Of a stretch of 61,784 bases of DNA, positions 8,727 to 55,905 are shown piece after piece. Under the pieces are notes generated by a model. It was not told the DNA's origin. It was given only the letters and a program-made list of their open reading frames with translations, and ran no database searches. The DNA comes from a virus. Its lineage: Duplodnaviria; Caudoviricetes. The number at the start of each line of letters is the position of its first letter. The first letter of the stretch is position 1. Where the stretch lies: the IMG/VR virus record IMGVR_UViG_3300029448_000029, positions 1 to 61,784 of that record; one strand, written 5' to 3'. Both the position numbers and the translations under genes were made by a program.

Positions 8727-8734
8727 TATTTATA
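8727..8734 (-). promoter_or_regulatory. T4-type late promoter TATAAATA for gp3
   Basis: Exact consensus, 5 nt upstream of the gp3 ATG, directly after the gp23 terminator. Confidence 0.8.
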
Positions 8735-10237: not shown

Positions 10238-10245
10238 TATTTATA
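10238..10245 (-). promoter_or_regulatory. T4-type late promoter TATAAATA for gp23
   Basis: Exact consensus in the gp22-gp23 intergenic gap; SD AGGAG downstream. Confidence 0.85.
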
Positions 10246-11217: not shown

Positions 11218-11225
11218 TATTTATA
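11218..11225 (-). promoter_or_regulatory. T4-type late promoter TATAAATA for gp22
   Basis: Exact consensus in the intergenic gap; SD AAGGAG downstream. Confidence 0.8.
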
Positions 11226-14380: not shown

Positions 14381-14388
14381 TATTTATA
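14381..14388 (-). promoter_or_regulatory. T4-type late promoter TATAAATA for gp20, located in a hairpin loop
   Basis: Exact consensus, flanked by inverted repeats that pair with the gp20 SD. Confidence 0.85.
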
Positions 14389-20674: not shown

Positions 20675-21163
20675 TTATTGTTTTACTTGAACGGTGACTG
20701 GAATATTTTGAATTTCTGTGTATTCCATGTTTTCAATGTAATACTTTCTGGTAATTGGCTCTTCCGCTTCATCTGGCTCACTTGCTGTGTAATCAGTGAA
20801 TCCTGGCATACCTAATGGACAACTTAATTTTGGGTGATCTAATTTGCTGTATTCGTTACCTTCGGAAATAAGCCAAGTCGCTTCTCTATCCCCACAACCA
20901 CAACCACCACAGAAATGCTTCCCCACACTTTTGCTGTTTTGTAAGTGTTGGCATGGTGGTAAAACACCACCAACGTGCTGATTTCCGAAACAACTAATGA
21001 CTCGTAATTGCTTTGTTGCTTTTTCTACTTTTTTATTTCCAAATCCTCTGGATGCTAAGGCTGAGGCATAACTTTGAACCATACCAATACCTTTTTTGAG
21101 AGCATTCTTTTTTGTTTCATTTAGTTTTCTAAAACCACTATTTTTACAATTTTTACAGCCCAT
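20675..21163 (-). CDS. Small Cys-rich protein (CxxC, CGGCGC, CP); putative metal-binding or fibre-assembly factor
   Basis: MGCKNCK, RVISCFG, PPCQHL, HFCGGCGCGD, KLSCPLG; last gene of the fibre operon. Confidence 0.6.
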   Translation of the reverse strand: MGCKNCKNSGFRKLNETKKNALKKGIGMVQSYASALASRGFGNKKVEKATKQLRVISCFGNQHVGGVLPPCQHLQNSKSVGKHFCGGCGCGDREATWLISEGNEYSKLDHPKLSCPLGMPGFTDYTASEPDEAEEPITRKYYIENMEYTEIQNIPVTVQVKQ

Positions 21164-21172
21164 GATTATTCC

Positions 21173-22930
21173 TTATATGATATTAATTCTTCTTACCAAT
21201 CTAATTTTAAACTTATTATCTAATCCTGTCAACATTGTAAAACCATCTTTTCTTGATGTTTCTGTATTATCGGGACCAGCAAATGCAGAGTAAACCAGAT
21301 TTGCTGCTGGATAATTTGCAAATTCTCTCACCAAAGTATTGCTTCTAGTTGAAGAAAGATATGGGAAATATAATTCGGGATCAAACGGATTTGAGTATCT
21401 TGTTGGTCTGTATGACAATAACTTTCTTCGATTTTGTGAATAACGAGAAGCATAACCAACCGTAAAATCTAACTCTCTCTGAACATCAATTATGAAACCA
21501 AGTTCTTGAATGCTAGGAACATACCAATCTCGGAAAGAAAATCTATTGTATCCTCTGACTTGTTTAAAGAGATCGCTTTGTGGTGCGGGGTAATTTGATG
21601 CACCGTATGTGTTTAGCAAACCGTCGTAAGTTGATGTCTCCATTCCATCAATTCTTTCTGAGGTTGTTGTGTGTTGATATAAAATGTCGTTCAATCCAAA
21701 CTCATCTCCGAGATCGGACAGACACATAATGAGTGCCCATTTTGAATCGGCACCAATACCACTCTTTTCGGATGCTCTGGGATCAGTTGCCTCTCCAGTT
21801 TCTAAGTTGATTTTTGTTTTACTAATGCCTGGATTGAAAATACCCATGTAAATTCCACCAGCGAATGTATCACCAACATTAGGTAAGTTATCCGCTGAAA
21901 TATTGGGTGGAATCGGGACGTTATTTGAAAAACTTGGCTTTTGTGGACATGTATCTCTATCGCATTCGACGGGACCACTTTCATCTGGATCTATGAAAAA
22001 TCCATTTTGTCTTTCGCACTCTAATCGTGTGGTTCTTATACACCCACCAACGACACAACACGCACTGGTTTCTTCGTTTTGAGTAACCGTTTTTTGTAAA
22101 TTTATGCCAGTAATTTCGTTTTTATTGGAACCTCTGTTTTGATCCTCTTGTGGTATGTCAAAGGGATCTCCCACAACACTTTCCAAATAGGCAGGACCGG
22201 GGGGTGGTGGATCTGGTTCAAACTCACACGATCCATCGTCCACCGTGGCATCTGGATTATAATTTAGAGCATCCGGATCTGTGCAGCCAGCAATTTCAGT
22301 TCCACATTCAAATCCATCTTGACCATTAAGTGTGTCATAGTTGCAAATAGATCCGGTGATAAAAACAGATTGACAATCGGGAATATCTGGTAAATTAAGT
22401 TCCGCACACTCCTGAGCACTGCACACATTTTTACAAACACGAATAAACTCTTCACCAATTTCTTGACAATGACAACAGGCAAATGGGAATCTTACATCAT
22501 TCCTACCTTCAATTCCTTCAGTCGTGCTACAAAGAGTTAATCTACCGAACGCACCATCAGGTTCAACGGGAGACCAGTTTCCCCCATAATACTCACATTC
22601 ACATTTACTGATTCCAGATTGTATGCCGTTTGACGAGCCGAAGATTCCATAGATACCACCATCATTTTCTCCATCACCATCAGCCCAGTCGGTTCCATCT
22701 CCTGTGTTTTTGTTTGCATAATTACAGGAGCAACAAAAACCAGTTTCGTTTGGTTGAGGACATTGATGTGATTCAAAATTAACATTGGGTGTCCAGTAAC
22801 CAAATGAAGATAAACAATCGGAGAATGTTTTTTGTGTTTTCGTTCCGTCTGTTTCACAGCAAACTCCGACTGAGTTAATATACTCTTCGTAATTGATAAC
22901 TGTTTTTATTTTTCCTCGTGTTTGTGCCAT
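21173..22930 (-). CDS. Cys-rich virion protein with C-terminal DUF1566-like (C-type lectin fold) domain; putative adhesin
   Basis: Start likely ATG 22930 (TAATG overlap); GxCC modules, one GCTDPDALNYNPDATVDDGSC repeat, GDTFAGGIYMG ... DWYVPSIQEL ... YLSST ... KIRLVRRI. Confidence 0.7.
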   Translation of the reverse strand: MAQTRGKIKTVINYEEYINSVGVCCETDGTKTQKTFSDCLSSFGYWTPNVNFESHQCPQPNETGFCCSCNYANKNTGDGTDWADGDGENDGGIYGIFGSSNGIQSGISKCECEYYGGNWSPVEPDGAFGRLTLCSTTEGIEGRNDVRFPFACCHCQEIGEEFIRVCKNVCSAQECAELNLPDIPDCQSVFITGSICNYDTLNGQDGFECGTEIAGCTDPDALNYNPDATVDDGSCEFEPDPPPPGPAYLESVVGDPFDIPQEDQNRGSNKNEITGINLQKTVTQNEETSACCVVGGCIRTTRLECERQNGFFIDPDESGPVECDRDTCPQKPSFSNNVPIPPNISADNLPNVGDTFAGGIYMGIFNPGISKTKINLETGEATDPRASEKSGIGADSKWALIMCLSDLGDEFGLNDILYQHTTTSERIDGMETSTYDGLLNTYGASNYPAPQSDLFKQVRGYNRFSFRDWYVPSIQELGFIIDVQRELDFTVGYASRYSQNRRKLLSYRPTRYSNPFDPELYFPYLSSTRSNTLVREFANYPAANLVYSAFAGPDNTETSRKDGFTMLTGLDNKFKIRLVRRINII

Positions 22931-25900
22931 TACTCGCAATCCTCCAAGTATCGACAGTAGTTATCAACGCCAGCAATTTCTGGACAATTCATCGTGACAC
23001 ACTCACCGTTCACAATTTTTCTTGCGATATAGAATGAGTAATTAATTTCAGTAGAATTGAAATTGTCATACGTTGTTTTAAAGAATCCACCGCTTACTCT
23101 TTCTTGTCCTGCATTTCCAGTTGGACGAACTGGATTAAATCCACCAACGTCGTTACCAAAGTTGATTGGTAGATTTTTTCCATAAATGCCATCTTGAACA
23201 CCAGTTGATTGTGTGTTAAACATGGTTCCGCCGGGACCGGGACCAGGTCCTTGACCGCACTGCCCGAAACTGTCTGGATAAAAACAACTACCGTCGTCTA
23301 TATTTGCCTTTGGATCCCAATTACATGCAGTCTCATCTGTGCAGCCATAGATTTCTGGCTCCGGATCAGGTTCAAAAATGCAGCAATTAGAACCACTATT
23401 GGTGCAAGTGCAGGCAAAAGAGGCATCTGGATCATAATTTGTTGCAGATGGCACTAAGCAACCAGCGTATTGACAAGTTCCATTATCTTTAGTTGCACTT
23501 GGATCGTAGTTACACGCTCCCTCATCTGTGCAGCCAGGAACTTCATACTCACATAGCGAGTTGTCACAACAAACTGATATGTCATCACCTGACGAATTGT
23601 AGTTTGTTGCAGCCGGATCACAACAAACTGGTTCACCACAACTGCCTCCATTGGGACAATATTCACACCCCTGATCCACGTTTGCATTTGAATCGTAATT
23701 ACATGCGTTATCATCCATGCAACCAAAGATTGGCTCTGGACAATTAGCACAGGGATTGTCTCTACACTTGCTATTTAATCCTTGAAATTGCCCTCCTAAT
23801 CCTGCACACTGGATAATTAAATTTTGAACACCGGATCCTTGAAGTTCAGAACATATACCGAAAACAGCGTTACCATTTCCATCAGTTTGTTCACATTGTC
23901 CACAACATGCACCACTGTATATGCAGGATCCATCGTCATTAACAGCGTTTTCATTGTAGTTAATTGCATTCGGATCTGTGCAACCATCGACATAGGTGCA
24001 GCACTTGTTCTCTGGGCAAGAAATGACGGTGCCGTTTTGACACTCTGCTTCGTTGTAGTTGCTTGCGGTCGGATCGCAGCAATCTTCGCCGGGAGGTGGT
24101 GGTGGTGGTCCTCCACATGGATTTCCGAGACAACCTTCACCCCGAGTCCAAACAGAGCCTGATGGTGCGAAACAATTACACCATGCTTCCGTTGATTGAC
24201 GGCAAACTCCATTCACACCACAGCAACGTCCAAGATCCTCTGGGAAAGTATTTTTATCTGAGCGAGTAACCCAAACCAAAGATCCCTCATCAAATCCACT
24301 TAACTCATAACCATCAGATCCACGGACAGAGGTGACACCTGTGTGAAGTCCTAAAACGCTTCCCTCTAATAAGTCAGATTCCCCTTGGCTGCCTTGACAT
24401 GCTCCAAACGTTCCGTTGAAGTTAACTCTGCGTGGATCGTGTCGAGGAGAGGCCAAAGCATACAATCCCATATACTCCTCATTGAATGAAAATGACCCTC
24501 CAAGTGGTGTTTCATCTATAAGTGGGAACCCACCAGAATTATAAAATTGATTGTTTTCATCTCTTAACACATATGCAAAACCACGACCATATGCCCAACC
24601 ATTTGGATATATTCCGTTCGGATCTCCTATTGATTCAAAACAACTCGCTCCAATTTCCTCATATCCAAACATCGTGCGGGCTTGACTCTCATAATACTGA
24701 TCAACCGGCCTGTAAACATCATTTGCGTAAATGAAACATAGACCGCTCAGATTGCCGTTCCCACTGGAGCGTTCAACCCATGATCTTACACCAACAAGGG
24801 CACTGGCAGATCCGAGGTTCAATGGAGTTGTCCGAGTCGAAAAGAATCGAAGATAACCATCTACATCTTCATCTGTTGTTGGGGGATAACATGCAGCGAT
24901 GTAATCTGCTGGTTCACGAAACGAGCATGTTGCAGGGGCATTTTCTATAATGCTATTTCTCTCTTCGCAGTTATCTTTGTTATCACCACATGTTTCAGAA
25001 CTAGACCAACAATTACCGCCACCATATTTTACCGCATCAATCCACGGGGCCCAATCAGCCACTTGAGTTTGGAATTTAATCCACTCAGAAACACCTTTAA
25101 TTGTTTTATTGTCCTGAGATCCTTCAAATGCACCAAGCAAAGTTTCATCCACTCCCGCTCCATTTTGTTGATTCCGTCTTGGAGTGGTAGTTACAGGAGC
25201 AGCACAGAAATATCCATAGAAATCGGGATTGTCTGGGATCGGGTTGTCACTTTGGCTTAGTTCAAACCTCATGTAGCCGGGTGCGCCCGCTTCATCTAAG
25301 CAAGGATTGTCCTCGCAAGAAACTCCCTCTTTATATGTTCCGACACACTGAGGACAATCCTCTGGACCTTCTACTTCAACGCACTCATCAATATAAGTGT
25401 AATAGATTGCTCCTTCAGCACCACCACCCGCATTAACAATACCTTGTTTTTTCAAACAACAAACTGCTTTGGCAGCGTTACCGAAACAACAATTTGTCGT
25501 TGCACAATTTGTTCCATCACCTTGGAAAATTCCACCAAATTCTTTACAACGAATGTGACTTAGAGGCTCTCCCGTGTCGGGATCGGCATCAAGACAAATG
25601 CCGGGTTGACCTTCTCCTGTGTCCTCTGGTAATTCAACACTTTCGGGTAAGCCAGGTGGTGGTTCAAACACACCATCTCCATCGGGATCACTAAACGGAA
25701 TACAACATGCACCAAATCTTTCAAACTCTTCACAACAAGTTTTTTCGGGTTGATCAATATCATCCGTTGTGCAAGTATATCCATCTGGATATACATCGTC
25801 GGGTGGTGTGGATATTCCACCATAGACAAATTCACATTGAATTCGAGTTAGGTTGTCACCAATGCAAACACCATTAACACAACAGGGAACTGTTGGTTGA

Positions 25901-27357
25901 CAAAAATCAAAACAGAATCGACCTTCTTCAATTGGCTCTGCGTAGTTAGGTCCCTCGGGATTAAATGGTAACGTAAAAGTTTGCCCTTCAATTTGATATG
26001 AGAAAGTGTTGTTTTCACAAACTGCTGCGGGAAAGAACGTCCCTGCGATTGATTGACATAAAGCCGCACTAATATTAGACTGACATCTACCATCAGAACA
26101 ACAAACCCCACCAAGTTCTCCACATCCATCAGCACAAGATTGCAACGGATTAAAGTTTCCTCCGACAGCATCACATCCTGCTCTGGTTTGATAGTCCGTG
26201 CAAACAAAAATGCCACCAGCGTCAATTAGTGCTTGATCCACAAAGTTTGGATCAATTGTTTGTCCCTCTGCCGTTTGAAAGAAGCAACATGAGCCAGGAA
26301 CATTACCAGTCGTTTCACAACCAGCGGTGTCGTAACCTCTTGCCGTAAAGACGGCATACCAGTTTTCACCACCATCTGTTGTGGTTAGAGAGAGAACATC
26401 CGTTCCGCATGTAAAATAGTTTTCTCCTGTTTCAAAGAAAACATTTGGTGGGAACTGAATGACATTTCCACCGCGAACAAAGAGAGTTTTTGTTATGGAA
26501 TAACCAAGTGGAAAATCACCTGTAAATCCTGCTATGGCAAGAGGGCCTCCACTTGGATCAGCGGAAAGAGTTATAACATCGGACTTGCTTATATCATAGT
26601 GTGTTTCTGCTGTTCCTCCGGGCACTGGAACAGGGCCGGGACCGGGACCAGTCGCTTGCACCACACTGTATCCTCTGAGAACTGAGGTAACGTTCAACGC
26701 AGGTGAAGTAACACCCTCACCAGATTTAAAATCTAGAACATCTCTATTATCACCGCTATCAAAAGTGGAAATACCTGTGCTTGATACAGTATCTTTTTCA
26801 CCCACATAAAGAAGTGTATTGTTTACAATATCAGATGTAACAGATTTGTCGACCGTTGTGGTCGATGAAATAATAATATCATTACCATCAGATGTTGCTT
26901 GCAAACTGCCGCTTGCGGTGATGGATCTAAAATTGTATGTTGTTCCAGATAAACCAAACGCAAAAGTTACTCCGGTTCCCAAGTTAAATAAATCGGCAGC
27001 CGATGAATTAAAACCAGTCGGTCCGGTGATGTAGGGATAGATTCCCGTTGCGTTATCAACATCGGTAAGAAGTTCACTGATTGATATTTCATTTTCTTCG
27101 AGAGTTTCTGGATTTATTCTTTTGGCTCGAACATCAAGGAGAAATTTTGCACCATCGAGTTCTGGATCCCCAAAAGTTCCGCCGGGGAATAGTCTTTCAA
27201 AAGCATAGATGATGTCACCAGTCAATCCACCAGGTCCTGTGGATCCTGTTGGGCCAGTAGGACCGGTCGCTCCTGTTGCACCTCTTGGTCCGGTGGGTCC
27301 AGTCGGTCCTGTAATACCAACTGCCGGGATTGCACTACTACCGTAAATGAAAGCCAT
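22930..27357 (-). CDS. Collagen-like, Cys-rich tail fibre protein
   Basis: N-terminal (Gxx)n GITGPTGPTGPRGATGATGPTGPTGSTG; multiple GxCC modules; about seven GCTD-type repeats near the C-terminus. Confidence 0.75.
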   Translation of the reverse strand: MAFIYGSSAIPAVGITGPTGPTGPRGATGATGPTGPTGSTGPGGLTGDIIYAFERLFPGGTFGDPELDGAKFLLDVRAKRINPETLEENEISISELLTDVDNATGIYPYITGPTGFNSSAADLFNLGTGVTFAFGLSGTTYNFRSITASGSLQATSDGNDIIISSTTTVDKSVTSDIVNNTLLYVGEKDTVSSTGISTFDSGDNRDVLDFKSGEGVTSPALNVTSVLRGYSVVQATGPGPGPVPVPGGTAETHYDISKSDVITLSADPSGGPLAIAGFTGDFPLGYSITKTLFVRGGNVIQFPPNVFFETGENYFTCGTDVLSLTTTDGGENWYAVFTARGYDTAGCETTGNVPGSCCFFQTAEGQTIDPNFVDQALIDAGGIFVCTDYQTRAGCDAVGGNFNPLQSCADGCGELGGVCCSDGRCQSNISAALCQSIAGTFFPAAVCENNTFSYQIEGQTFTLPFNPEGPNYAEPIEEGRFCFDFCQPTVPCCVNGVCIGDNLTRIQCEFVYGGISTPPDDVYPDGYTCTTDDIDQPEKTCCEEFERFGACCIPFSDPDGDGVFEPPPGLPESVELPEDTGEGQPGICLDADPDTGEPLSHIRCKEFGGIFQGDGTNCATTNCCFGNAAKAVCCLKKQGIVNAGGGAEGAIYYTYIDECVEVEGPEDCPQCVGTYKEGVSCEDNPCLDEAGAPGYMRFELSQSDNPIPDNPDFYGYFCAAPVTTTPRRNQQNGAGVDETLLGAFEGSQDNKTIKGVSEWIKFQTQVADWAPWIDAVKYGGGNCWSSSETCGDNKDNCEERNSIIENAPATCSFREPADYIAACYPPTTDEDVDGYLRFFSTRTTPLNLGSASALVGVRSWVERSSGNGNLSGLCFIYANDVYRPVDQYYESQARTMFGYEEIGASCFESIGDPNGIYPNGWAYGRGFAYVLRDENNQFYNSGGFPLIDETPLGGSFSFNEEYMGLYALASPRHDPRRVNFNGTFGACQGSQGESDLLEGSVLGLHTGVTSVRGSDGYELSGFDEGSLVWVTRSDKNTFPEDLGRCCGVNGVCRQSTEAWCNCFAPSGSVWTRGEGCLGNPCGGPPPPPPGEDCCDPTASNYNEAECQNGTVISCPENKCCTYVDGCTDPNAINYNENAVNDDGSCIYSGACCGQCEQTDGNGNAVFGICSELQGSGVQNLIIQCAGLGGQFQGLNSKCRDNPCANCPEPIFGCMDDNACNYDSNANVDQGCEYCPNGGSCGEPVCCDPAATNYNSSGDDISVCCDNSLCEYEVPGCTDEGACNYDPSATKDNGTCQYAGCLVPSATNYDPDASFACTCTNSGSNCCIFEPDPEPEIYGCTDETACNWDPKANIDDGSCFYPDSFGQCGQGPGPGPGGTMFNTQSTGVQDGIYGKNLPINFGNDVGGFNPVRPTGNAGQERVSGGFFKTTYDNFNSTEINYSFYIARKIVNGECVTMNCPEIAGVDNYCRYLEDCE
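23280..24085 (-). repeat. Tandem Cys repeats of consensus GC(T/M)DxxAxNYxxxAxxDDGSC
   Basis: DCCDPTASNY, DGCTDPNAINYNENAVNDDGSC, FGCMDDNACNY, VCCDPAATNY, PGCTDEGACNY, AGCLVPSATNY, YGCTDETACNWDPKANIDDGSC. Confidence 0.85.
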
Positions 27358-27365
27358 TAATTACC

Positions 27366-30300
27366 TCAGTAACCAGAAGATGACGAACCACCCATTGAAG
27401 ATCCACCGCCCATCGGTGATCCACCGCTCATTGGTGATCCGGTTGACGGACGAGCAGTCCCATTATTTATGTTACCTCTTGAAGTATTAATTTGAGTTCC
27501 GTTAAAATAATTATCCCCGCAGTTACATGTTTGACAGTTGTAACAATCTCCATTATTATTTCCAACGTATCGTGCAAGGTGATTATTTAACTGACAATTA
27601 AAATCGGTATCAAAGAGTGGTATTCTTCTGACTGGTCTTGCTGCGGCAATTTTTTCAATTCTAAATTCACTTGACACTAAACCTGATCTAAAGTTTTGTG
27701 TAAACGCTCGGTGTGCATGAGAGGCAACAACAGAGTTTTTAGATTCAAGAATAAACTCTTGTGGATCTTCTGGACGATAATTTGCTCCGATACAACCATT
27801 TGGTGCAACCGCAGTTGTTTTCGCTCCTGTTGTTGACGACCAATAACTTGTCTCGGTGAGTGGTGTCATACCAGATCGAAGAAGAGAACTGTTAATGATA
27901 TTCAAGTTTCCGTAAAGATACATCAACTCAACAATACTTGGAACATACCAATCATTGTAACCAAACTTACCGTCTGTGTTCCAATCAGAAATCAATCGCA
28001 TGATTGCATTTTCTTTATTGTCTTTTTCCCAAAGTTTTTCAAACTCTTGCTTGAAGTATTCTTTGTCTGTTTTTAATTTTTCGATATCAACATCAGGTCC
28101 CCAAACGTCCGTCTTTTCGTGTGACCAACGATCATATGCAGCGTCATCTCTGCCCATCAAATCTTCGATAAACCAAGGCATCCAATCATAACTGCTTCGA
28201 TCAAACATTCTTGTTCCGAGTAAGCCATCGAGGTATGGAGTTCCCATAAACTTACCATCTTCAACAGGATCAGAAGATCCACCATCAAACGCTGCTTGTC
28301 TAAGTCCCCATGACAAAGTTTTTGAATCGTTGTATGACAAATCTTCTGGTGCGATAACAAGCGCCCATTTTCTTGGGGCTCTTCCATCCGAATAATACGA
28401 ACTTGCAATACTATAATATCGTTTAATTTCTTCGTATGAATTTGCAGAAGCGAGTTGTCTCTTGATTGGCAATTCATGAAGGTTTAAATTGTAAGGACTA
28501 TGTGGAACGTCTGGATAACCAGAGGGATCTGAAACAAAGTCTTGTGGGATATACTTGTATGGTGTCACGCTGTCGCAAGAACAAGGCCCATTAATCTCAC
28601 CAAAGTAATTGTTGCCAGCATTCAATACGAAAGTTCTTGCGGTTGATCCAGAACCACTTGGGCAGACAGGACATTGAGATCCATAACCGTGAGTTAAACA
28701 ATATGGTGCTTCACCCTTCGCAATGATAGAGCCATAGTCATTTGGTTCACCAATCACTCCGAGCAAGATACCGCCACCAAATTCATCTCCAGGCTTCAAG
28801 TATGTTGTTGGGTTTACATTCAACGCACACAAAGATCGCTCAGCCTCTGGATTTCGTCTTTCATTTTGTGGGGGTGCAAAAGGTTGTGGTCCCTGATTAT
28901 CTGTGCATGCATCGTTACAGTCCTCACAAATGTCATCACACAATCCGTTACCACCATCACCTCCTACATAGTCCTTACCCCTACCATCAAGTGGTGTATC
29001 TTGTCCTTCCCGACTACCACCGGTGCATCTAAAACCAGTTTGTGAATTTTCGTCTGGAATCGAAGAACTGATGGGAGGGGATGCACATGATCTATTAAGG
29101 ATATACCCCGTCGCAAGACTACCATTAACGATTAATGAATGAAGCCCGGAAAACCCTCCGACCTCGACCAACAAGACCGAATTAGAAGTGGCATTTCCAT
29201 CAAGATCAACAAAAACATGCGGATCTGAGGGGTTGTTTGGATTTGTATAGTAAAACACACCTGAACCATCTGCTGCTGCTATTGGACACACTGTTGCGTA
29301 TTGAATAGGACCAGAGACTGGCACAGAGCAGTCCGTCTGGCAAAGATCACCACAATCTGTAACTGTGCCTTCTCTTTCAAGTGATCTTGCAAAACATGTT
29401 GGCCCAAAAGTTCGTCCTCCGAGTGTAATCTCACAGTCACCGATACCGCAATCCCCTCCACTTTCTGTTGCGATACTACAATAATTTGGAGCGCCCACGG
29501 TGGTGCAACCATAAATCGGACAATCATAGCCAGGGTAGTATGTTTGTAAGAAACCGTCAAAATAAATGCTATATGCGATTCCAGTTGGACATGCTAATTG
29601 ATTTCCATTTGTTCCATTGTATCTGCAAGGCCCTTCAGTTTCACTTACAAAAGTGATAATTGGATCTGGATTTCCTATGCCTCTATTTGTCAATTCGCTT
29701 GCAAGAACTGAACAATCCGCACCGCCGGGAACACTCAATCTAAATGTTTCATTTCCATTGTTAAATTCGCAGCACTTACATGGTGGGACTGATGGTGGTG
29801 GTGCCTCATCTTGTAAACAACAATCTATATTTTCACAAAGAGATCCATTTCCTTGGAAAATACCACCTATTTGATTACATTCAAACGGTGTGATGTCTGG
29901 ATTACAAACTCTTCCAACACAACACGCACCTTTGTAGAAGTCCTGTAAACAACAGTTAAACGTTCGACAATTTTCACCCTCATAAAACGTTCCGCCGGCT
30001 AAATCACACTCATTACGATTGAAGGTGTAACAAACACCATTCACGCAACAGGCACCGACCTCACAACGATCTGGACATTCAACCTCATCTGGAGTCTGGT
30101 TGGGGAAGAAAACACCACGGAATTCATCACAAATTTTGCTGGTAGAATTAACAGAGGTTCCATTAATACAGCAAGTTCCTTGTGCGGCACAGTTTGCGCC
30201 AGTCAAACGATTTAAACAGGTTGTGTCTGCTAAGAAGTTGCCACCAATTTCATCACAATACGCTTTGGTGATGTAATCAGTGCAAGCACCCTCAAAGTTA

Positions 30301-31211
30301 CCATCATCTACATCCGTGCAATAGCAGCATGATCCATATTCTGCTAAGCCATCATATTTTTTCCATTGATCTGGATCATCTGCTGGTGCGGAATATGATA
30401 GGAAATAACTAATATCATCAAGCCCATTACCAGTAAGTCCTATGTTTAAACTTGGGAATCTAATTCCAAATTGATCTTGGAATACTGTTCTTGTTTTACC
30501 AAACCCACCAGAACCACCAATTAACGATGGAAATTCATATCCGATTTTATTTGTATTTGGACCTTGAAAGTTTCTGTTTCCACTCAAGAACTCATAAAGA
30601 GGTGCGACGTTAATAGTTAAATTGTCGTCAGATCCACTATGTCCAGTGTCCTGAGTGTAAAGAGAAAAATCAAAGCCCTCTGCTGATTGTCCACCCTCTT
30701 TAGGGACAAATACGAGTTGTCCAGTCGCTCCAATAAAATTGCCTTCCGCACCATGAATGTTTATGGTATCGGCTGAATCCGCTGGTGGTTTTAATCCGTT
30801 TGCCGGATCCCCAGTGAAAGAAGCGTTACCGGAAAGAGTTAATGTTTTAAAATAACCAGTTTTGCCCGGAATGGGTAGTGGTTGAAAAATTGTTGCCCTT
30901 GTTCCAGCCGATGTAAAATTAACTGCGATGGGAACATCATTTGGTCCGATTGGACCACTTACTTCAACGGAGGAGTATCTGAATCCAGTGGATCCAATTA
31001 CGGTTGCATTTTTATCTTCAAACTTAAATGTGATGGATCTATTATCGTAAGTTAGTCCAACGATAAGATCACCAGAAATACCTGTCGCACCAGTTGTTCC
31101 CGGTCCTATTGGACCTGTTGCTCCAGTGATTCCGGTCGCACCAGTAGGACCAAGAGGACCAGATGCGGCTGCTTGTCCAATGCTGCTGCTACCGTAAACG
31201 TATCCTGACAT
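27366..31211 (-). CDS. Collagen-like, Cys-rich tail fibre protein with DUF1566-like domain
   Basis: GPLGPTGATGITGATGPIG; tandem GxCC modules; GDEFGGGILLG ... GYNDWYVPSIVEL ... YWSST ... ARPVRRI; Ser/Gly tail ending SSSSGY. Confidence 0.75.
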   Translation of the reverse strand: MSGYVYGSSSIGQAAASGPLGPTGATGITGATGPIGPGTTGATGISGDLIVGLTYDNRSITFKFEDKNATVIGSTGFRYSSVEVSGPIGPNDVPIAVNFTSAGTRATIFQPLPIPGKTGYFKTLTLSGNASFTGDPANGLKPPADSADTINIHGAEGNFIGATGQLVFVPKEGGQSAEGFDFSLYTQDTGHSGSDDNLTINVAPLYEFLSGNRNFQGPNTNKIGYEFPSLIGGSGGFGKTRTVFQDQFGIRFPSLNIGLTGNGLDDISYFLSYSAPADDPDQWKKYDGLAEYGSCCYCTDVDDGNFEGACTDYITKAYCDEIGGNFLADTTCLNRLTGANCAAQGTCCINGTSVNSTSKICDEFRGVFFPNQTPDEVECPDRCEVGACCVNGVCYTFNRNECDLAGGTFYEGENCRTFNCCLQDFYKGACCVGRVCNPDITPFECNQIGGIFQGNGSLCENIDCCLQDEAPPPSVPPCKCCEFNNGNETFRLSVPGGADCSVLASELTNRGIGNPDPIITFVSETEGPCRYNGTNGNQLACPTGIAYSIYFDGFLQTYYPGYDCPIYGCTTVGAPNYCSIATESGGDCGIGDCEITLGGRTFGPTCFARSLEREGTVTDCGDLCQTDCSVPVSGPIQYATVCPIAAADGSGVFYYTNPNNPSDPHVFVDLDGNATSNSVLLVEVGGFSGLHSLIVNGSLATGYILNRSCASPPISSSIPDENSQTGFRCTGGSREGQDTPLDGRGKDYVGGDGGNGLCDDICEDCNDACTDNQGPQPFAPPQNERRNPEAERSLCALNVNPTTYLKPGDEFGGGILLGVIGEPNDYGSIIAKGEAPYCLTHGYGSQCPVCPSGSGSTARTFVLNAGNNYFGEINGPCSCDSVTPYKYIPQDFVSDPSGYPDVPHSPYNLNLHELPIKRQLASANSYEEIKRYYSIASSYYSDGRAPRKWALVIAPEDLSYNDSKTLSWGLRQAAFDGGSSDPVEDGKFMGTPYLDGLLGTRMFDRSSYDWMPWFIEDLMGRDDAAYDRWSHEKTDVWGPDVDIEKLKTDKEYFKQEFEKLWEKDNKENAIMRLISDWNTDGKFGYNDWYVPSIVELMYLYGNLNIINSSLLRSGMTPLTETSYWSSTTGAKTTAVAPNGCIGANYRPEDPQEFILESKNSVVASHAHRAFTQNFRSGLVSSEFRIEKIAAARPVRRIPLFDTDFNCQLNNHLARYVGNNNGDCYNCQTCNCGDNYFNGTQINTSRGNINNGTARPSTGSPMSGGSPMGGGSSMGGSSSSGY

Positions 31212-31219
31212 ATATTACC

Positions 31220-34200
31220 TCAATAACCAGAAGAGGAAGAACTAGAAGATGATCCTCCCATAGAACCACCGGACGAACGAGTAGACCTAGGGGATGGTGA
31301 GGATGGAGTTGATGGGGTTGACGTTCCTCGTCCGCTAGTTCCAGACTGAGTATTTATGTCATCTCCAAGTATGGGTCGTCCTGCCTCTATGTAAGATTTT
31401 AATAATCTCATAGACTCGTTGGGATCGACAGGTTCAAAAGGTCTGCTTGCTGAAGCAAATTCCTCTTCGGGACATCTTGATCCATCTCCACCATAGTCAC
31501 CAGCATAAAAGTTTACACAATCGTATCTGTTGGTGAGGAAACAATATCCAGAGGACAATGTGCATGATCCAAAGATAGCACCTGTATTTGTGGAACGTCC
31601 TTGATACTGCGGAACAGCCTCGGGATCGGTAAAGTATCGGTGAGTAAAGCCAGGATCAAAAATGTTTGATTCACCAGTGACACCCGGAGAAAATTCAGAG
31701 ATGAAGTGAGTTCTGTTTATGGTCGGATCTGCAAAAGGTTCATCTGTATTAAACACATATGGGATATACCACAATCTTGCATGTTTATCAATAAAGGAGC
31801 CTCTCTTTGATGGATCCAAATTATCAAATCCTGCTTTTGGATATCTACCATCCGCACGAACGAGTCGAATCGGTCGAACCTTTGCGGTATCGTCAGACTT
31901 GCTAAGTTTCTTCATTGAGAAACCATCTGTAACATCCTCGGAATTTAAATTGTTGGGGAATGTCATTGCCCATGCTTTTGTCATGTGACCAACAATTCTA
32001 TCACCAACATTTTCCTGAATTCTACCATCGTTTCGTGGCACTTTGGTTCCAACATATGGAGCGAGACCGGTGAAACCTTTGTTATCACCTGTTCCAATTT
32101 GTGTTGCATCTGCGGTCGAACCAATGAACAAAAGACCCTCTGGATTTTCTAAGTGATTTGCTTGCCCCTCAATGAGTTTTCTTTGCCACGAGTAATAAGC
32201 CTCATGCAACGCATTCCAGCGATCAAGTTCCTCTTGCGTCCAGTCGTCATCTGGTCCAACAGGTCCAGCCCCACTTTCAATGGAAAATCTTGACATGTCT
32301 AATCCAGCGAACGCTTCTTGTAAACTACTTTGCAATTCTTCAAACTCAGTTAATCTACCGCTGAAATCGAACGCACCCATTGATGTCCAATATTCACCAC
32401 GAATTGCATCACCACCGGCTGCAACAATTTTTTCGTTCAATCCTTCCAGAGCGACTTTTCTAGCGATATATGCCATCTCATCTGGACTTGGCAAATACCA
32501 AGGAGACATGAATGGTGGATTTGGATAAATCCAGTTATTTTCAGGATCACAGAAATTGTCTGGGCAAGGTTGAGAAACTCCATCCTCATCAACACTATGT
32601 AACCTGTCATCATACTTACTTCGTATAACGTGAACCGATGAAAGTTTTGCCGTCGGCTCGGCAGTCTCTAGACCTGGTGTTTGAATTTTACCAAACCAAT
32701 ATTCACCAACGTATGACGGGCTGTTGTAATACTCTTCAACCGCTTCTGCGGAGAATCTTGAAAAAGCGTGTGGATAAACATTAAGAAGGTAGTCGGCATA
32801 ACCACCGATGACTGGATTAAACGGGAAAGATGCGTATGCGAAACCATCTGATCTACCAACACCGGGACCGCACCCAATAACTGTCCCTCCACTCGTTACT
32901 GAAACGGGAGTGTTTACGCAACCACATGTAAATGATTCACCAAGTTCTGAACAAAATACTGGATTGTTTCCATCCGGTGGAAGATAATCATATGTTCCGT
33001 TACACAAATCAGTTGAACTATCTGGACGACAATTATAGTAGCCGTGATTCAATGCATGTGCCATTCGGACGGTGTTATGGAGTCCCCAGTTTCTATGATA
33101 TACTCCGTTCATATCGGGTCCAAATTCACCTCGACTATTCGTCGGTCCAACCCCACGATTAAAATCAGGAGGCACTTTGGAGAATAATTTACTCAATCCA
33201 TTAACATTGAATTGAACACCGGTCGCCCTCGCAGTATTATAAGTTGTTGCGGAATTAATAAACATAGATTTACTAATATTTTGACCGGGACCACTGTCGA
33301 ATTGTCCGCCCTCACCCTCAGCAAGAATGCCGGGTGGAACTGGGTTTGTATGAGTTAAATCCACTCGATCTTGTGTTTGGTATTCGCCGGGTGGTGATGA
33401 AGAAACAGAAATATTTGTTCTCGATGCTCTCTCTGCTCTAGCGGGCCAACCAGATTTAAATTGATTTGTTTCATCCAGTGTTCTTCGATAAAAACCCTCT
33501 TTCGTTCTGAAGATGGGTCTAAAACTTCCTCCAACTTCTCCATTGTGAAGCGAGCCGGGTGAATTTGATCTCTGTAAATCAATGTCCATATATGTTTGAT
33601 CAGACTGTCTATCTGTTCCAATATTTCCGGGTGTATTGATATTTGTAATCGGACCATAATTTGATCCGGTCAATCCCCACTTAAATTGCTCTGTTCCATC
33701 TTCAAGTTTAGCGTCGTCAAGAGAGACAATAATGAACCAAGCGTCCTCTCTAACCTCACCATCATTTGGATTAGAAAGACCTTCCCAATATGATTTTGAT
33801 TCTCTGTCATCATATCCGTAACCGTGATAATCGTATGATGATCGGTAGAAGTTTGATGCAACACGATTATTTGTCACAAGACTTTTTGGCCAATAATATC
33901 TTACTATTTCACTACCCGACATTAAACCAGTAACATACTCATTATCATACACGTCAAGTCCAGAGGTGCTCCAATTACCAAGTAAGGATCTACCATTATT
34001 CGCTTGCCCATAGCCGGGGATGTGTTGCTCACTGTTTTCCGCAAAGGCAGGTAAAGCGGGTTCATTTTTTGGATCGCTCGGACTGATCTGATCTGAAATA
34101 TACGCATTTTCACCATATGTTGGCTGTATTTGCTCATTCGTAAAGTCGCTTTCTTTTACACCAAATCCGGCATTACCCAAAAGAACAGATCCATATGGAT

Positions 34201-36052
34201 TGTAAAGTCCAGAGACGACACCACCACCATACTCACCACCAGTCACGAATTTTGGTGCAACGTCTGGGTGTCTAAAGAAATCATAGAGAGTTTCAGAGGA
34301 GAGTGCTGAAGGACATTGTGTTGTTTGACACCGTGAACCGAGACCCGCATACTTGGAGCCAGCAGCGATACAATCGTCTCCAGTCACTCCATCGACACAG
34401 TTCCCGAATGTGCAACAGGAACCCGTCCCACCGGAACAGAGACCGTCGAAACAGGGAATACCTCTACCTCGGAAGAATCCACCGATCTCCTGACAAAGAT
34501 ACTGACTAACTTCAGTGCAGTTTCCAAGTCCATCACAGCAAGCACCAGTATCAAAGATTGAAAGCGTGCAATCAACTTGACCACATCCCTGACTGGCATC
34601 TGGATTACTCTCAGGCAAATAACCAATGAATCCCGCAAACGACGAATACAAATCGGGAGTAAATCGACCGAGAGCAAGACACTCTTCAGGACAAAGTATG
34701 TTACACGTTAACGGGTTTTGTGGATCCAACCCATAAATGCCTTGCCAGTTTCCGGGCCATCCTTGTTCGGGGATTTCTGGTATCAACGTGTCAAGACCAA
34801 GCGGATCAAGAACTTCATTGTATTGACAGCATGGACCAATCGCATCTGCGTTGATGGGGCCGCTAAGGGTTCCACATACATTTAATCTATCGTCACCAAA
34901 GAAACCAAAGGCATTAGAAATATAATCTGGAACAAAGAAGCCGGGACAGTTTGGTTGACTTTGGAATGTGGGTGAGCCATCACCGAGACAACAAACACCA
35001 ACGTTACCAAAACCACCACCAATTAAAGTATCGTCTTCGTTACAGTAATGTGTTTCATCATAAGTTACAAGACTACCTGAATCATTCCAGTAAACCAAGT
35101 TACCATACCAAGAATTACCGTTTGAAATAAACGTGTAAATGTCTCGATTACCGCTAAAGCAAGGTTTTCTAATGAACGGGAATTTAACCTCAGAATTGGT
35201 TGATGTAAATCTATCAACACTCGCAGGTGTTCCCGTTGCACCTTCAACAACCAAGAAGAATGCAGCACTTTTATCAGAGGGTGGTTCTGTAATATTGACG
35301 ATGATTGGAACGGTGTCAATATCGTTACCTTCTATTTGTGCATCTTGTGCCTGAACAAGGAAAGTTTTTCCTCTTGTCCAATCCACATCAACTCTCAATC
35401 CGTTTCTACCCGCAATTATATCGGCACTTAATCCATCACCAGTTCCAAGTAAGATTGCAGGCTCAAGAACAGAGCGAACAGCCAGACCCTCAATTTCGTG
35501 TCTATCTAAAAATTCAGCGGCAGTTGCACCACTAATACCAACGATATCACCGGACGCATCAGCCATAATGAGTTGTTGCGGTGTTGCGGAAACATTTAAA
35601 TATCCTGTGCCAGAGATATCGTAATTAATATTAATGTTTCCGTTACTTTCGGTGAGAGTTAGATACTCACTCTCGACACCAATGTTTCTTATTTCCATTG
35701 ATCCAGCATCGGTGTCTACAGATTTTGCAAAAGTAAAACCACTGCCAAAATTATTGAATCGCAGATTTGTCATTCGTGTTGGGCCGGTGTTACCAAAAAT
35801 TTTATCACCGGAAACACCACCAGTAATTGCAGTTATTTTATGTTGTGTTTCGATACCGTTGAACTGCGTGACAAAAGTTATTCCTTCACCCGTTTGATCG
35901 AATCGGAAGAAGTTACCGCCAGTGTGTCCTGTTGGGCCTGTATTTGCTGGTCCGGTGGGACCAGTGGGACCAGTTATACCAATAGGACCAGTCGGTCCAG
36001 TCGGCCCCGTGCCCGTTCTAACAAATTTAGAAAACCCAACATATATCGGCAT
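31220..36052 (-). CDS. Collagen-like, Cys-rich tail fibre protein with expanded DUF1566-like domain
   Basis: GTGPTGPTGPIGITGPTGPTG; GVCC/GPCC/GACC/GSCC modules; GGEYGGGVVSG ... WYLPSPDEM ... YWTS ... VRPIRLV; tail ending SSSSGY. Confidence 0.75.
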   Translation of the reverse strand: MPIYVGFSKFVRTGTGPTGPTGPIGITGPTGPTGPANTGPTGHTGGNFFRFDQTGEGITFVTQFNGIETQHKITAITGGVSGDKIFGNTGPTRMTNLRFNNFGSGFTFAKSVDTDAGSMEIRNIGVESEYLTLTESNGNININYDISGTGYLNVSATPQQLIMADASGDIVGISGATAAEFLDRHEIEGLAVRSVLEPAILLGTGDGLSADIIAGRNGLRVDVDWTRGKTFLVQAQDAQIEGNDIDTVPIIVNITEPPSDKSAAFFLVVEGATGTPASVDRFTSTNSEVKFPFIRKPCFSGNRDIYTFISNGNSWYGNLVYWNDSGSLVTYDETHYCNEDDTLIGGGFGNVGVCCLGDGSPTFQSQPNCPGFFVPDYISNAFGFFGDDRLNVCGTLSGPINADAIGPCCQYNEVLDPLGLDTLIPEIPEQGWPGNWQGIYGLDPQNPLTCNILCPEECLALGRFTPDLYSSFAGFIGYLPESNPDASQGCGQVDCTLSIFDTGACCDGLGNCTEVSQYLCQEIGGFFRGRGIPCFDGLCSGGTGSCCTFGNCVDGVTGDDCIAAGSKYAGLGSRCQTTQCPSALSSETLYDFFRHPDVAPKFVTGGEYGGGVVSGLYNPYGSVLLGNAGFGVKESDFTNEQIQPTYGENAYISDQISPSDPKNEPALPAFAENSEQHIPGYGQANNGRSLLGNWSTSGLDVYDNEYVTGLMSGSEIVRYYWPKSLVTNNRVASNFYRSSYDYHGYGYDDRESKSYWEGLSNPNDGEVREDAWFIIVSLDDAKLEDGTEQFKWGLTGSNYGPITNINTPGNIGTDRQSDQTYMDIDLQRSNSPGSLHNGEVGGSFRPIFRTKEGFYRRTLDETNQFKSGWPARAERASRTNISVSSSPPGEYQTQDRVDLTHTNPVPPGILAEGEGGQFDSGPGQNISKSMFINSATTYNTARATGVQFNVNGLSKLFSKVPPDFNRGVGPTNSRGEFGPDMNGVYHRNWGLHNTVRMAHALNHGYYNCRPDSSTDLCNGTYDYLPPDGNNPVFCSELGESFTCGCVNTPVSVTSGGTVIGCGPGVGRSDGFAYASFPFNPVIGGYADYLLNVYPHAFSRFSAEAVEEYYNSPSYVGEYWFGKIQTPGLETAEPTAKLSSVHVIRSKYDDRLHSVDEDGVSQPCPDNFCDPENNWIYPNPPFMSPWYLPSPDEMAYIARKVALEGLNEKIVAAGGDAIRGEYWTSMGAFDFSGRLTEFEELQSSLQEAFAGLDMSRFSIESGAGPVGPDDDWTQEELDRWNALHEAYYSWQRKLIEGQANHLENPEGLLFIGSTADATQIGTGDNKGFTGLAPYVGTKVPRNDGRIQENVGDRIVGHMTKAWAMTFPNNLNSEDVTDGFSMKKLSKSDDTAKVRPIRLVRADGRYPKAGFDNLDPSKRGSFIDKHARLWYIPYVFNTDEPFADPTINRTHFISEFSPGVTGESNIFDPGFTHRYFTDPEAVPQYQGRSTNTGAIFGSCTLSSGYCFLTNRYDCVNFYAGDYGGDGSRCPEEEFASASRPFEPVDPNESMRLLKSYIEAGRPILGDDINTQSGTSGRGTSTPSTPSSPSPRSTRSSGGSMGGSSSSSSSSGY

Positions 36053-37230
36053 TATGAAAGTCCAAGTGTAGTTTTAATATTACTTACCTCAGTATTTATG
36101 CTGTTAACTGTGGAATTTATATCATCTAAAGTATCCGCACTTGCCGTATTTGTTGTGAGTTTATTCGTAACTTCTAAATCAGTGACTGTAATTTTTCTTG
36201 GAATTGTTACACCTATCGTGTTTTTAACTTTCAATAATGTTATTGTTTCAACTTCAGTTGCAGACCCATCAACATCAAAACGATACTGCGTGGTGGGAAC
36301 AATTCTTGGAATAACAAATCGCGTAATAGTTCTTTTTGTTACTGAATACTCATTTCCATCCACTTTTATATTTTTTCCAGTATCGGCTTGAGACTGTCCA
36401 GTGTTTCTATTAACGGTTATGGTATTTGCTCCAACGTTCACTCCCGTGATTCTAGCAGAGTAAGTTTGTGATCTGCCGTCTTGTTGTATTGCTTGTTGAC
36501 CGATGAGACTTTGTGTAAGCCTGTTTCCGTTAATTTCAATTTCTTCAGTATAACCAAACTGTGTCCCAAAATAATTAAATGCCTCTGGGTATTCTGTGGT
36601 TTTTAAATATTGAGATCCTTTTGATACGTTTATGTAATTTGGTGGAGTAATAAAAGAATCGCCGCCCACGACTGTCAATACTTCTCCAATATCCGTGTCG
36701 GTGTCATTGGTAGATGCAACCTCACCACCAATGGAATAACCAATGTAGTTAAGAACAACAGCGTTGTTTGTTCCATCGTCCATTTTCTGAAGAACTGGCT
36801 TAACAACTTCAGTTGGCTGGAAAGGTGCTATGTTTTGAACTCCACCAGTAACCGATGGACTTAAGAAGAAAATATCATTACCACCAGATGCCCCATCTAT
36901 GGTTCCGGTAGGTGTATTATCAACAAATTTATCCGAGGGGAAACTTATTTGACCGAAGATCACAACGTTCATAGTGTCATCATCAATGGACTCAACCACA
37001 CCGACAACCTCTGCATTTTCAGCGTTGTTCGCAAGCGACGTTTTGTATTGTTTGGCACTTTCGTCGCTCACATCATAGCGAATAACATCACCTGCCGTGA
37101 TTCCTTCTTCAAAAGAATAGTCACTACTAACCAAAGGAATCTGCGCAAGAATTCGTGAACCTATACTATTAAGGTTCACCGAGGTGATTGATGACATGAT
37201 GTTAGAACTAGAAGAGCAACTTGATGACAT
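36052..37230 (-). CDS. Virion protein with beta-sandwich module and tail-collar-like domain
   Basis: GITAGDVIRYD...ANNAENAEVVGVV module shared with the next gene; IGEVLTV...PPNYI....QYLKTTEYPEAFNYFG resembles the phage tail-collar motif; C-terminal heptads. Confidence 0.6.
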   Translation of the reverse strand: MSSSCSSSSNIMSSITSVNLNSIGSRILAQIPLVSSDYSFEEGITAGDVIRYDVSDESAKQYKTSLANNAENAEVVGVVESIDDDTMNVVIFGQISFPSDKFVDNTPTGTIDGASGGNDIFFLSPSVTGGVQNIAPFQPTEVVKPVLQKMDDGTNNAVVLNYIGYSIGGEVASTNDTDTDIGEVLTVVGGDSFITPPNYINVSKGSQYLKTTEYPEAFNYFGTQFGYTEEIEINGNRLTQSLIGQQAIQQDGRSQTYSARITGVNVGANTITVNRNTGQSQADTGKNIKVDGNEYSVTKRTITRFVIPRIVPTTQYRFDVDGSATEVETITLLKVKNTIGVTIPRKITVTDLEVTNKLTTNTASADTLDDINSTVNSINTEVSNIKTTLGLS

Positions 37231-37238
37231 GGTTTACC

Positions 37239-39509: not shown

Positions 39510-39516
39510 GTTTACC

Positions 39517-55473: not shown

Positions 55474-55905
55474 ATGGCCTATAAAACTGTCTACAAACCC
55501 ATAAATGAATCAAAATATGTAGGTGATCCAACCAACATCATTTGTCGTTCCCTATGGGAAAGAAAGGTGTGTAAGTATTTAGACACAAATGAAAACATTT
55601 CACGGTGGGGAAGTGAGGAAATCGCTATTAAATACTTTTCACCAGTGGACAATCGTGTTCATCGCTACTATCCTGACTTCATAGTTGAGGCAATCACTCC
55701 AAATGGGGGTAAAAAAACAAAAATCATTGAAGTCAAACCATATAAGCAAACGATACCACCAGAAAAAGGTAAAAAGAGAAAGAAAACATACCTCAATGAA
55801 GTCACTACATATATGGTGAACGAGGCTAAATGGAAAGCGGCACAAAAATTTTGTGAAAAACGAAACTGGGAGTTTGTTATTCTCACTGAAAAGGAATTGT
55901 TCTAA
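55474..55905 (+). CDS. gp4: Head completion nuclease (TnsA-like)
   Basis: YKP.N..KY.GDPTNIICRSLWER, WGSEEI.I.Y.SP.D...HRYYPDF, IEVKP, VNEAKWKAA, ILTEKEL. Confidence 0.93.
   Translation: MAYKTVYKPINESKYVGDPTNIICRSLWERKVCKYLDTNENISRWGSEEIAIKYFSPVDNRVHRYYPDFIVEAITPNGGKKTKIIEVKPYKQTIPPEKGKKRKKTYLNEVTTYMVNEAKWKAAQKFCEKRNWEFVILTEKELF

Follow-up and report, generated by a model that had tools for sequence, protein, structure and literature searches.

Four cysteine-rich, modular fibre-like proteins encoded in the late gene region of an uncultured marine T4-like phage

What could be the function of four consecutive proteins of 585 to 1610 residues, holding 219 cysteines between them, that are encoded among the late structural genes of a myovirus whose virion is assembled in the cytoplasm? 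The question is raised by IMGVR_UViG_3300029448_000029, a linear IMG/VR virus record of 61,784 bases (hereafter the window; a fragment, estimated to be 34% complete). Its source is an uncultured marine T4-like myovirus of a distinct lineage, with a portal protein at most approximately 47% identical to those of isolates, for example Synechococcus phages and the Methylophilales phage Melnitz. The array of four open reading frames (ORFs) occupies positions 21173-36052 on the minus strand, and had been singled out in an earlier reading of the same DNA (the original prediction). The genes are labelled A, B, C and D, D being the first in transcription order. Here, we propose, with a probability of roughly 0.6, that A-D are virion-attached, probably trimeric host-recognition fibres that combine disulfide-knotted modules with lectin-like heads; that they are structural fibres or adhesins of one kind or another is very probable.

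The composition of the array sets it apart from its surroundings. Gene D (31220-36052, minus strand) encodes 1610 aa with 37 Cys (2.3%), gene C (27366-31211, minus strand) 1281 aa with 60 Cys (4.7%) and gene B (22930-27357, minus strand) 1475 aa with 94 Cys (6.4%). Gene A (minus strand) encodes 28 Cys (4.8%) in a protein of either 588 aa, from a TTG at 22939 (21173-22939), or 585 aa, from an ATG (21173-22930). The ATG at 22930 appears the more likely start, because it overlaps the TAA of B as TAATG and agrees with the N-termini of orthologs. The junctions within the array are gaps of 8-9 nt or overlaps of 1 nt. In comparison, 62 Cys are spread over the 9623 aa of 21 other ORFs (hand sum); Cys makes up 0-1.5% of each of 20 of these, the exception being an ORF of 162 aa with 8 Cys. 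The four consecutive Cys-rich proteins of the original prediction, with the lengths given there, are therefore real, although the description of all four as extremely Cys-rich goes too far for D, in which the content is moderate. Direct reading of the four sequences reveals no N-terminal hydrophobic signal sequence.

B, C and D begin with approximately 250-350 Cys-free residues, and A does not. In D, Gly-X-Y triplets (residues ~13-47) are followed by a Cys-free shaft to residue ~297, a Cys region (298-580), a long region resembling DUF1566, a degenerate copy of the six-Cys CC module described below (1495-1531) and a Ser/Gly tail ending in GY. C has Gly-X-Y triplets (~17-47), a shaft, CC modules (293-464), an irregular and variable Cys region (465-780), a conserved DUF1566-like C-terminal half and, again, a Ser/Gly tail ending in GY. 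B comprises Gly-X-Y triplets (14-47), a Cys-free shaft to ~315, approximately six CC modules within 355-686 (some with long insertions), a Cys-poor middle (700-1040), a CC module at 1043-1081, a stretch of GCTD/CCDP repeats with one further CC module (1093-1365), and a Cys-bearing C-terminal tail. A consists of an irregular Cys-rich N-terminal part, one GCTD unit (22226-22288, minus strand), a Pro-rich linker, one CC module and a compact DUF1566-like C-terminal domain. The low-complexity Ser/Gly-rich tails of C and D (27366-27460 and 31220-31330) end in SSSSGY; the tails of orthologs, including those on the viral contigs L009 and L016, are alike (SQSSGY, GSGYSY), and the terminal Gly-Tyr is conserved.

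The CC module is a tandem repeat of approximately 36 residues with six invariant Cys and the consensus G-x-C-C..G.C.......C...G-G-x-F.G.G..C....C. A strict regular expression finds only 6 canonical copies in A-D. A profile built from a seed of 15 phage modules, including these 6 copies, which match by construction, matches 4 times in C, twice in D, once in A and 8 times in B at an independent E < 0.01. Several of the matches in B are halves of modules split by insertions, so B is read as approximately seven modules and the whole array as approximately 14; the modular repeats of the original prediction are thus present. D carries two tandem canonical modules (residues 503-539 and 544-580; 34313-34546, minus strand; E 3.7e-14 and 9.9e-13, both in the seed), and C carries four (residues 293-336, 345-383, 386-420 and 428-464; 29820-30335, minus strand; E 2.4e-6, 0.0046, 2.4e-14 and 8.2e-16, the last two in the seed). 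The single module of A lies at 21947-22066 (minus strand) and is found by both regular expression and profile. Every Cys in the four-module block of C is invariant among seven sequences.

Where else does this module occur? The original prediction had proposed building profiles of the modules and listing their taxonomic hits. Among 1.84 billion sequences, the CC profile matches 3903 representatives (of clusters at 50% identity) at E <= 1e-3, 1496 at E <= 1e-10 and 200 at E <= 1e-30, and these are mostly signal-peptide proteins: a crude signal peptide is found in 110 of the top 153. Copy number reaches 37 in one protein of 1971 aa (P0008). The named members are proteins from metagenome-assembled genomes (MAGs) of Phycisphaerae, Planctomycetota and 'Candidatus Eisenbacteria', mostly Planctomycetota, and the relatives of one named member come from Phycisphaerales, Planctomycetota and Isosphaeraceae MAGs. 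Collagen repeats occur in just one of the top 153, a phage-like protein (P0011) on the viral contig L011. Among 1793 full-length bacterial modules, 1790 retain the complete set of six Cys. Five bacterial MAGs (G005-G009, which hold L025-L029) have 51-143 profile matches each, spread over many large ORFs. A module common to the whole phylum Planctomycetota was considered and ruled out: 59 of 61 sampled genomes have none at E <= 1e-5, and one of the two that do is the centre genome, chosen for the module. The CC module has instead undergone a massive, lineage-specific expansion in these five MAGs.

The AlphaFold modelling of modules, also proposed with the original prediction, succeeded in so far as it yields a confident module fold. 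An AF2 model of D residues 490-590, from a 13-row alignment, has a mean pLDDT of 78.6, rising to approximately 85-88 within the modules, and each module is predicted to fold as three strands, with a short helix between the second and the third. The best Foldseek match in the PDB is a disulfide-rich extracellular segment of ADAM17 (E 1.2, probability 0.69, 35 columns). A wide VIA-align search of 48,161 chains returns none at Z >= 2, the best match in BFVD has an E of only 2.1, and the module has no Pfam, NCBIfam or PDB-sequence match. For a module of 36 residues, the absence of a structural match to the predicted model does not prove a new fold.

The second Cys-bearing element, the GCTD repeat, is a tandem repeat of approximately 21-30 residues with the pattern GC[TM]D..A.N[YW]....(D)DG(S/T)C and two to four Cys. 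GC[TM]D copies number four in B, one in A and one in an 1848-aa protein encoded in the baseplate region. The block in B (residues 1093-1365; 23263-24081, minus strand) contains four GC[TM]D..A.N[YW]......C units and corresponds to DNA repeat family D1. The units of A (22226-22297, minus strand) and of the 1848-aa gene (50056-50127) are likewise DNA repeats, and are 85% identical to one another at the DNA level, whereas the unit of A is only 64-67% identical to those in neighbouring B. This pattern of identity suggests a recent intragenomic module exchange, or gene conversion, between A and the 1848-aa gene. GCTD repeats are very common in secreted Bacteroidota proteins: among 4930 candidates, at least 3372 clusters (at 90% identity) match at E <= 1e-3, and PF18962, the type IX secretion sorting domain, is present in 47 of the 120 matches listed (hand count). 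Named sources are Flavobacteriales, Paludibacter, a Taylorbacteria MAG and two haptophytes; the repeat has no match in Pfam, NCBIfam or PDB sequences. Judged by sequence similarity, both Cys modules are related by descent to repeats in the secreted surface proteins of bacteria, and the term 'extracellular-matrix-like' used in the original prediction is apt.

The N-termini point to a fibre. B, C and D share a start of the form M..Y.(Y)G(S/F)S followed by approximately 11 Gly-X-Y triplets, and A is without collagen. A conserved N-terminal peptide with a collagen repeat is, as a sequence layout, typical of phage fibres. The Pfam Collagen family (PF01391) scores 20.1 bits on B, against a cut-off of 27.2, and matches four of seven members of the C group at E <= 0.01; PHROG tail-fibre matches are confined to the collagen repeat (phrog_6320, 1.9e-9; phrog_5073, 7.2e-9). 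The shared paralogous start that had been predicted is thus common to B, C and D together with collagen, but BLASTP detects no paralogy of A-D outside the shared modules. In Pfam, PHROG and NCBIfam scans, A-D match collagen and Lcl_C only, both below the cut-off in Pfam, and when PDB sequences are queried with C, with B or with the profile of the C group, nothing but collagen-like low-complexity matches is returned. As originally predicted, the T4 fibres gp34-37 are not recognisable in A-D, and neither gp12 nor wac is matched in Pfam or PHROG. The modules match no well-characterised phage fibre family in Pfam, PHROG or, by tblastn, 50,697 GenBank phage records, and a megablast search of the 14.9-kb array against GenBank phages finds no match.

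The C-terminal parts of three of the proteins resemble DUF1566/Lcl_C (PF07603), a domain known in phage tail proteins as a diversified ligand-binding domain. In C, the domain spans residues ~800-1200 (27612-28814, minus strand), and the stretch matched by PF07603 covers residues 1068-1136 (27804-28010, minus strand) with an E of 5.8e-6 and 27 bits, against a curated cut-off of 34.9. PF07603 matches all seven members of the C group (best E 2.8e-8) and five of 20 members of the A group (best E 0.0011), and the C orthologs P0005-P0007 bear precomputed PF07603 annotation. The only other Pfam match in these two groups is Collagen, in the C-group members noted above. In A, the candidate domain is compact and C-terminal (21176-21922, minus strand; hhalign and group matches), with 17 metagenomic homologs. 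In D, a putative DUF1566/Lcl_C-like region with very large insertions spans residues ~600-1400 (31853-34255, minus strand; hhalign), where Pfam finds no match. Profile comparison by hhalign links A with C at 85% probability over 216 columns, C with D at 69% (E 4.4e-5) and A with D at 23%. The three share the motifs GGG(I/V)..G, (K/A)W(A/F)(L/I)(I/V), DG..NT, (D/P)WY(V/L)PS..E(L/M) and a terminal (V/I)R.(V/I)R, represented in D by GGGVV.G, AWFII, PWYLPSPDEM and KVRPIRLVR. On these sequence criteria, the DUF1566/Lcl_C assignment is reasonable for C, plausible for A and weak for D. In Legionella Lcl, the C-terminal domain, carried on a collagen stalk, forms a C-type-lectin-like trimer that binds glycans (PMC11162425). 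As DUF1566 domains are known targets of diversity-generating retroelements, the presence of such an element was considered, and was rejected: the window holds no long near-identical template repeat, and no reverse transcriptase is present among the ORFs scanned with Pfam.

The setting of the array is that of a late structural block, in which Pfam and PHROG scans of the flanks identify all of its neighbours as T4-type late genes. Upstream lie genes for a gp53-like wedge protein, the 1848-aa tail protein, gp25, gp6 and two more wedge subunits, followed by proteins of 315 aa (headed by DUF4815), 741 aa, 756 aa (with a strong tail-fibre PHROG match) and 392 aa. Downstream are the 162-aa protein, gp13, gp14, gp15 and both terminase subunits and, further on, sheath, tube, portal, prohead protease, scaffold and major capsid protein. 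In T4, wac lies directly near gp13 and gp14. The array therefore occupies the position of T4 gp9-12/wac, between the baseplate-wedge genes and gp13/14/15, and not that of gp34-37. The replacement of gp34-37 that was originally inferred finds no support in this fragment, which covers about 34% of a genome. It belongs to a variable block of large genes that runs from the baseplate genes to gp13/14, and this position is known in marine cyano- and pelagimyophages as a hypervariable 'host recognition cluster' of tail fibres, collagen repeats and carbohydrate-binding domains (PMC7029224). The position in the late block, the collagen N-termini of B-D and the DUF1566/Lcl_C matches, weak and consistent, all support the fibre or adhesin nature that was originally proposed.

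The array is not peculiar to this window. It is syntenic, with the same neighbours, in the uncultured viral contigs L005, L006/L007, L008, L009 and L010, where the fibre orthologs are 35-54% identical, compared with 54% for the flanking 756-aa protein and 70% for the 162-aa protein. Orthologs of D are found in L006, L008, L009 and L010 (35-49% identity), and orthologs of B in L005, L006 and L008 (39-52% over the N-terminal 577-686 residues). C is 96% identical to P0005, 64% to P0006, 58% to P0007 and 53-54% to its orthologs in L005-L008 (best segment). Within these groups, Cys is far more constant than the sequence at large: 33 of 37 Cys are invariant in D (three sequences; 27% of all residues), 25 of 28 in A (29%), 36 of 60 in C (19%) and 40 of 94 in B (13%). 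It is the best-conserved residue in three of the four groups; in the C group it is exceeded by Trp (10 of 11 invariant), and the irregular Cys region 465-780 of C aligns poorly. On more distant contigs (L011, L016 and L018-L024), proteins of this type stand singly or as two or three neighbours. Of the 28 ORFs there that reach 300 aa, 18 contain one CC module or more, and the Cys content is 3.6% or higher in 16. The combination of collagen with Cys-knot modules and a lectin-like head recurs in at least 15 uncultured viral contigs, with no cultured representative.

How might such proteins work? In the architecture that we propose, the N-terminal peptide and Gly-X-Y repeats of B, C and D would both bring three chains together and anchor them close to the baseplate or neck. 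The Cys-free shaft would follow the collagen segment. CC modules and GCTD repeats would serve as small, autonomous, Cys-knotted rigid spacers, in which intramodule disulfides, three per CC module, are the most likely arrangement. The distal DUF1566/Lcl_C-like head of A, C and D would bind a ligand on the host surface, probably a glycan, and four different fibres might provide several specificities. As A-D lack signal peptides, the disulfides would have to form without export, and the simplest opportunity would arise at lysis, when virions meet oxic seawater; oxidation at this stage is a tentative suggestion, to which we give somewhat less than even odds. Oxidation without export is not unprecedented, as the virions of two myophages contain disulfides on the evidence of cryo-electron microscopy, mass spectrometry and treatment with dithiothreitol (DTT). 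In Pam3, the tail fibres are disulfide-linked and are released by DTT (PMC9942802), and in Milano, disulfides cross-link tail, sheath and baseplate (PMC10811340). A bolder version is speculative and rather unlikely: throughout the clade, fibres built from disulfide-knotted modules shared with surface proteins of two unrelated bacterial phyla would leave the cell reduced and immature, and would become rigid and infective only upon oxidation in seawater, forming a redox-gated infectivity switch that is reversible at a reducing host surface, and the modules would constitute a new fold family.

A number of points weigh against the proposal of disulfide-knotted, lectin-headed host-recognition fibres. 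What the sequences show directly is the order and composition of the genes, the homology of the modules, the conservation of Cys and the predicted module fold; a place of A-D in the virion, like the trimeric state, the disulfides, the time of oxidation and the ligand, is inferred from these. A search by tblastn of A-D against the GenBank phage records, cyanophages included, finds no match (E <= 1e-3; 1e-5 for B; low-complexity filter on). All PF07603 matches fall below the curated Pfam cut-off, A and D have no match of their own, and Lcl is not one of the PDB sequences matched by the C-group profile at E <= 1. The AF2 model of A residues 340-588 is poor (pLDDT 47.5), and Foldseek with this C-terminal model finds nothing at E <= 0.001. 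The DUF1566-like C-terminus is also the most conserved part of C (53%, versus 36-43% in the N-terminal half), which would be unusual for a receptor-binding tip. With regard to disulfides, no route is known here for the cytoplasmic folding of approximately 100 bonds per chain set. The number of Cys is even in three of the four proteins, which is slight evidence for pairing, and odd in D (37). Pairing is not inferable from joint loss because the Cys almost never vary. The search for thioredoxin, DsbA and Erv genes proposed with the original prediction came back empty for all five viral records, which says little because these are fragments 11-34% complete; the Erv search was also silent in 14 of 14 control genomes, making that negative uninformative, and there are no thiol-redox genes among 30 ORFs scanned with Pfam.

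The lack of a thiol oxidase in these fragments and of signal peptides in A-D would be less puzzling if the modules were stapled by Zn or Fe through four to six thiolates. Such modules would fold under the reducing conditions of the cytoplasm and need no oxidation, which would remove the maturation problem of a cytoplasm-assembled virion. T4 fibre proteins bind metal ions, and six invariant Cys could make a binuclear site, or a Cys4 site plus a pair. Against metal stand the module sequence and its relatives. CxxC, a spacing typical of thiolate metal sites, is either missing or shows no enrichment (0, 4, 4 and 0 observed in A-D versus 1.8, 6.4, 3.3 and 1.0 expected), CC and Cx4C spacings being the ones enriched, and the module consensus has no conserved His. 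Furthermore, the bacterial homologs are mostly signal-peptide proteins and hence belong to an oxidising compartment, and the sole structural neighbour, a weak one, is the disulfide-rich segment of ADAM17. As the exported homologs keep all six Cys, and as both His and enriched CxxC are missing, disulfides are favoured over metal as the probable state of the Cys in A-D, and metal stapling seems improbable.

Two further explanations concern the place of A-D in the particle. The array ends directly upstream of gp13/gp14, the place of wac in T4, and A-D could be structural without binding receptors, either as collar whiskers of the neck or as a decoration of the baseplate or the capsid, by which the virion would adhere to particles or to gels of polysaccharide. 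This would fit both the conserved rather than hypervariable C-terminal domain of C and the fact that the strongest tail-fibre PHROG match (phrog_4492, E 5e-31) belongs to the Cys-poor 756-aa protein, which may on that account be the true fibre. Four different, large, lectin-headed proteins that evolve faster than their neighbours are better suited to host recognition, and published surveys place tail fibres in this cluster (PMC7029224). The two functions are not exclusive, and a purely non-receptor role appears unlikely. A far more remote idea is that A-D are not virion parts at all but late proteins freed at lysis (soluble adhesins, decoys or matrix binders) and oxidised outside the cell. Their module repertoire is that of secreted bacterial proteins, and their incorporation into the particle is a prediction; yet the genes are embedded without gaps in a late structural operon, the N-terminal peptide and collagen repeat are typical of phage fibres, and the array is syntenic in diverged relatives, where it invariably has fibre-like genes on one side and neck genes on the other.

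As virion-attached fibres, A-D can be compared with several known systems. The presumed function is that of T4 gp34-37, gp12 and wac, namely trimeric fibres on the baseplate or neck of a contractile tail, and the gene position is that of gp9-12/wac, whereas A-D are Cys-rich, have collagen repeats and lectin-like heads, and match none of these families. The layout, which we take to resemble that of collectins, also recalls Legionella Lcl, with its N-terminal segment, collagen-like stalk and C-type-lectin-like DUF1566 head (in C, and more weakly in A). Lcl is a trimeric 'lollipop' that binds sulphated glycans (PMC11162425); here, in contrast, stalk and head are separated by Cys-knotted modules, hundreds of residues in length, and by large insertions, and PF07603 remains below its cut-off. 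Like the phage studied here, Pam3 and Milano are cytoplasm-assembled myoviruses; experimentally mapped disulfides hold their fibres, baseplate and sheath, and reduction releases fibres or permits contraction. Theirs are a few intersubunit bonds in ordinary proteins, whereas here there are autonomous repeated modules with up to 94 Cys per chain, the bonds are presumably intramodule, and there is no sequence relation. The homologous modules of the six-Cys repeat proteins from some Planctomycetota and other bacterial MAGs and of Bacteroidota type IX cargo with GCTD repeats occur in proteins with signal peptides or sorting domains and in long uniform arrays. A-D have neither, and mix CC and GCTD elements with collagen and DUF1566.

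As a kind of system, fibre islands are already known from marine T4-like phages, and the large variable structural genes of the late region, ending at gp13/14, are those of the published host recognition cluster; the word 'cysteine' does not occur in the available portion of that paper (PMC7029224). What was not found described is the extreme Cys content, the two uncurated extracellular module families, their combination with collagen and a DUF1566 head, and the absence of a relative in cultured phages. Literature searches, at the level of listings and abstracts, yielded no paper that describes the CC or GCTD module in phage fibres. Phage receptor-binding proteins set host range and are mostly unannotated in marine T4-like phages, and CC and GCTD are two unnamed domain families with neither a Pfam entry nor a solved structure. 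The array also poses a biochemical question, concerning the source of up to approximately 100 Cys pairs per fibre-chain set and the redox dependence of infectivity. Next to the virion disulfides of Pam3 and Milano, this clade would be an extreme case.

The genes that border the array on either side deserve separate mention. The 162-aa protein (20675-21163, minus strand), between the array and gp13, carries its 8 Cys in CxxC and CxxCxC motifs and travels with the array, a 168-aa ortholog of 70% identity occupying the same place in L008. It has no match in Pfam, PHROG, NCBIfam or GenBank phages, and its Atlas neighbours are viral hypothetical proteins. The 'adjacent chaperone' of the original prediction finds no support, this neighbour being an uncharacterised CxxC protein. 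It may act in assembly as a zinc-binding factor, or else be a small component of the neck or fibres. On the other side lies the Cys-poor upstream part of the same host-recognition block (36052-42689, minus strand), encoding the proteins of 392, 756, 741 and 315 aa, the last with DUF4815 at its N-terminus; this part is syntenic in L006, L007, L008 and L009. The 392-aa and 756-aa proteins (36052-39509, minus strand) have in common a segment of approximately 138 residues, at 32% identity, and a short DNA repeat family (D4), and on this evidence look like a second, Cys-poor pair of fibre-like paralogs.

T4 late-promoter-like TATAAATA motifs occur five times in the window, a total not above chance (14 of 100 shuffles reach 5). 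Four of them lie in short gaps upstream of genes, at 8727-8734, 10238-10245, 11218-11225 and 14381-14388 (minus strand), in front of the gp19-like, major capsid, scaffold and portal genes. There is none inside 21173-36052, and the array is thus probably read through from upstream.

Among recombination genes (gp46/47-like, UvsW and UvsY) sit two further ORFs. The PALP-like ORF 760-1512 (minus strand) was considered as a cysteine-supply gene and rejected, as its weak PF00291 score of 30 bits falls short of the cut-off of 35 and the PDB yielded no relative. The second, 4252-4989 (minus strand), encodes a DXD glycosyltransferase (PF04488, E 3.5e-13). At the strand switch beside the baseplate genes, the ORF at 55474-55905 (plus strand) has a TnsA-like endonuclease N-terminal domain (PF08722, E 9.4e-21), and possibly encodes a homing-type endonuclease.

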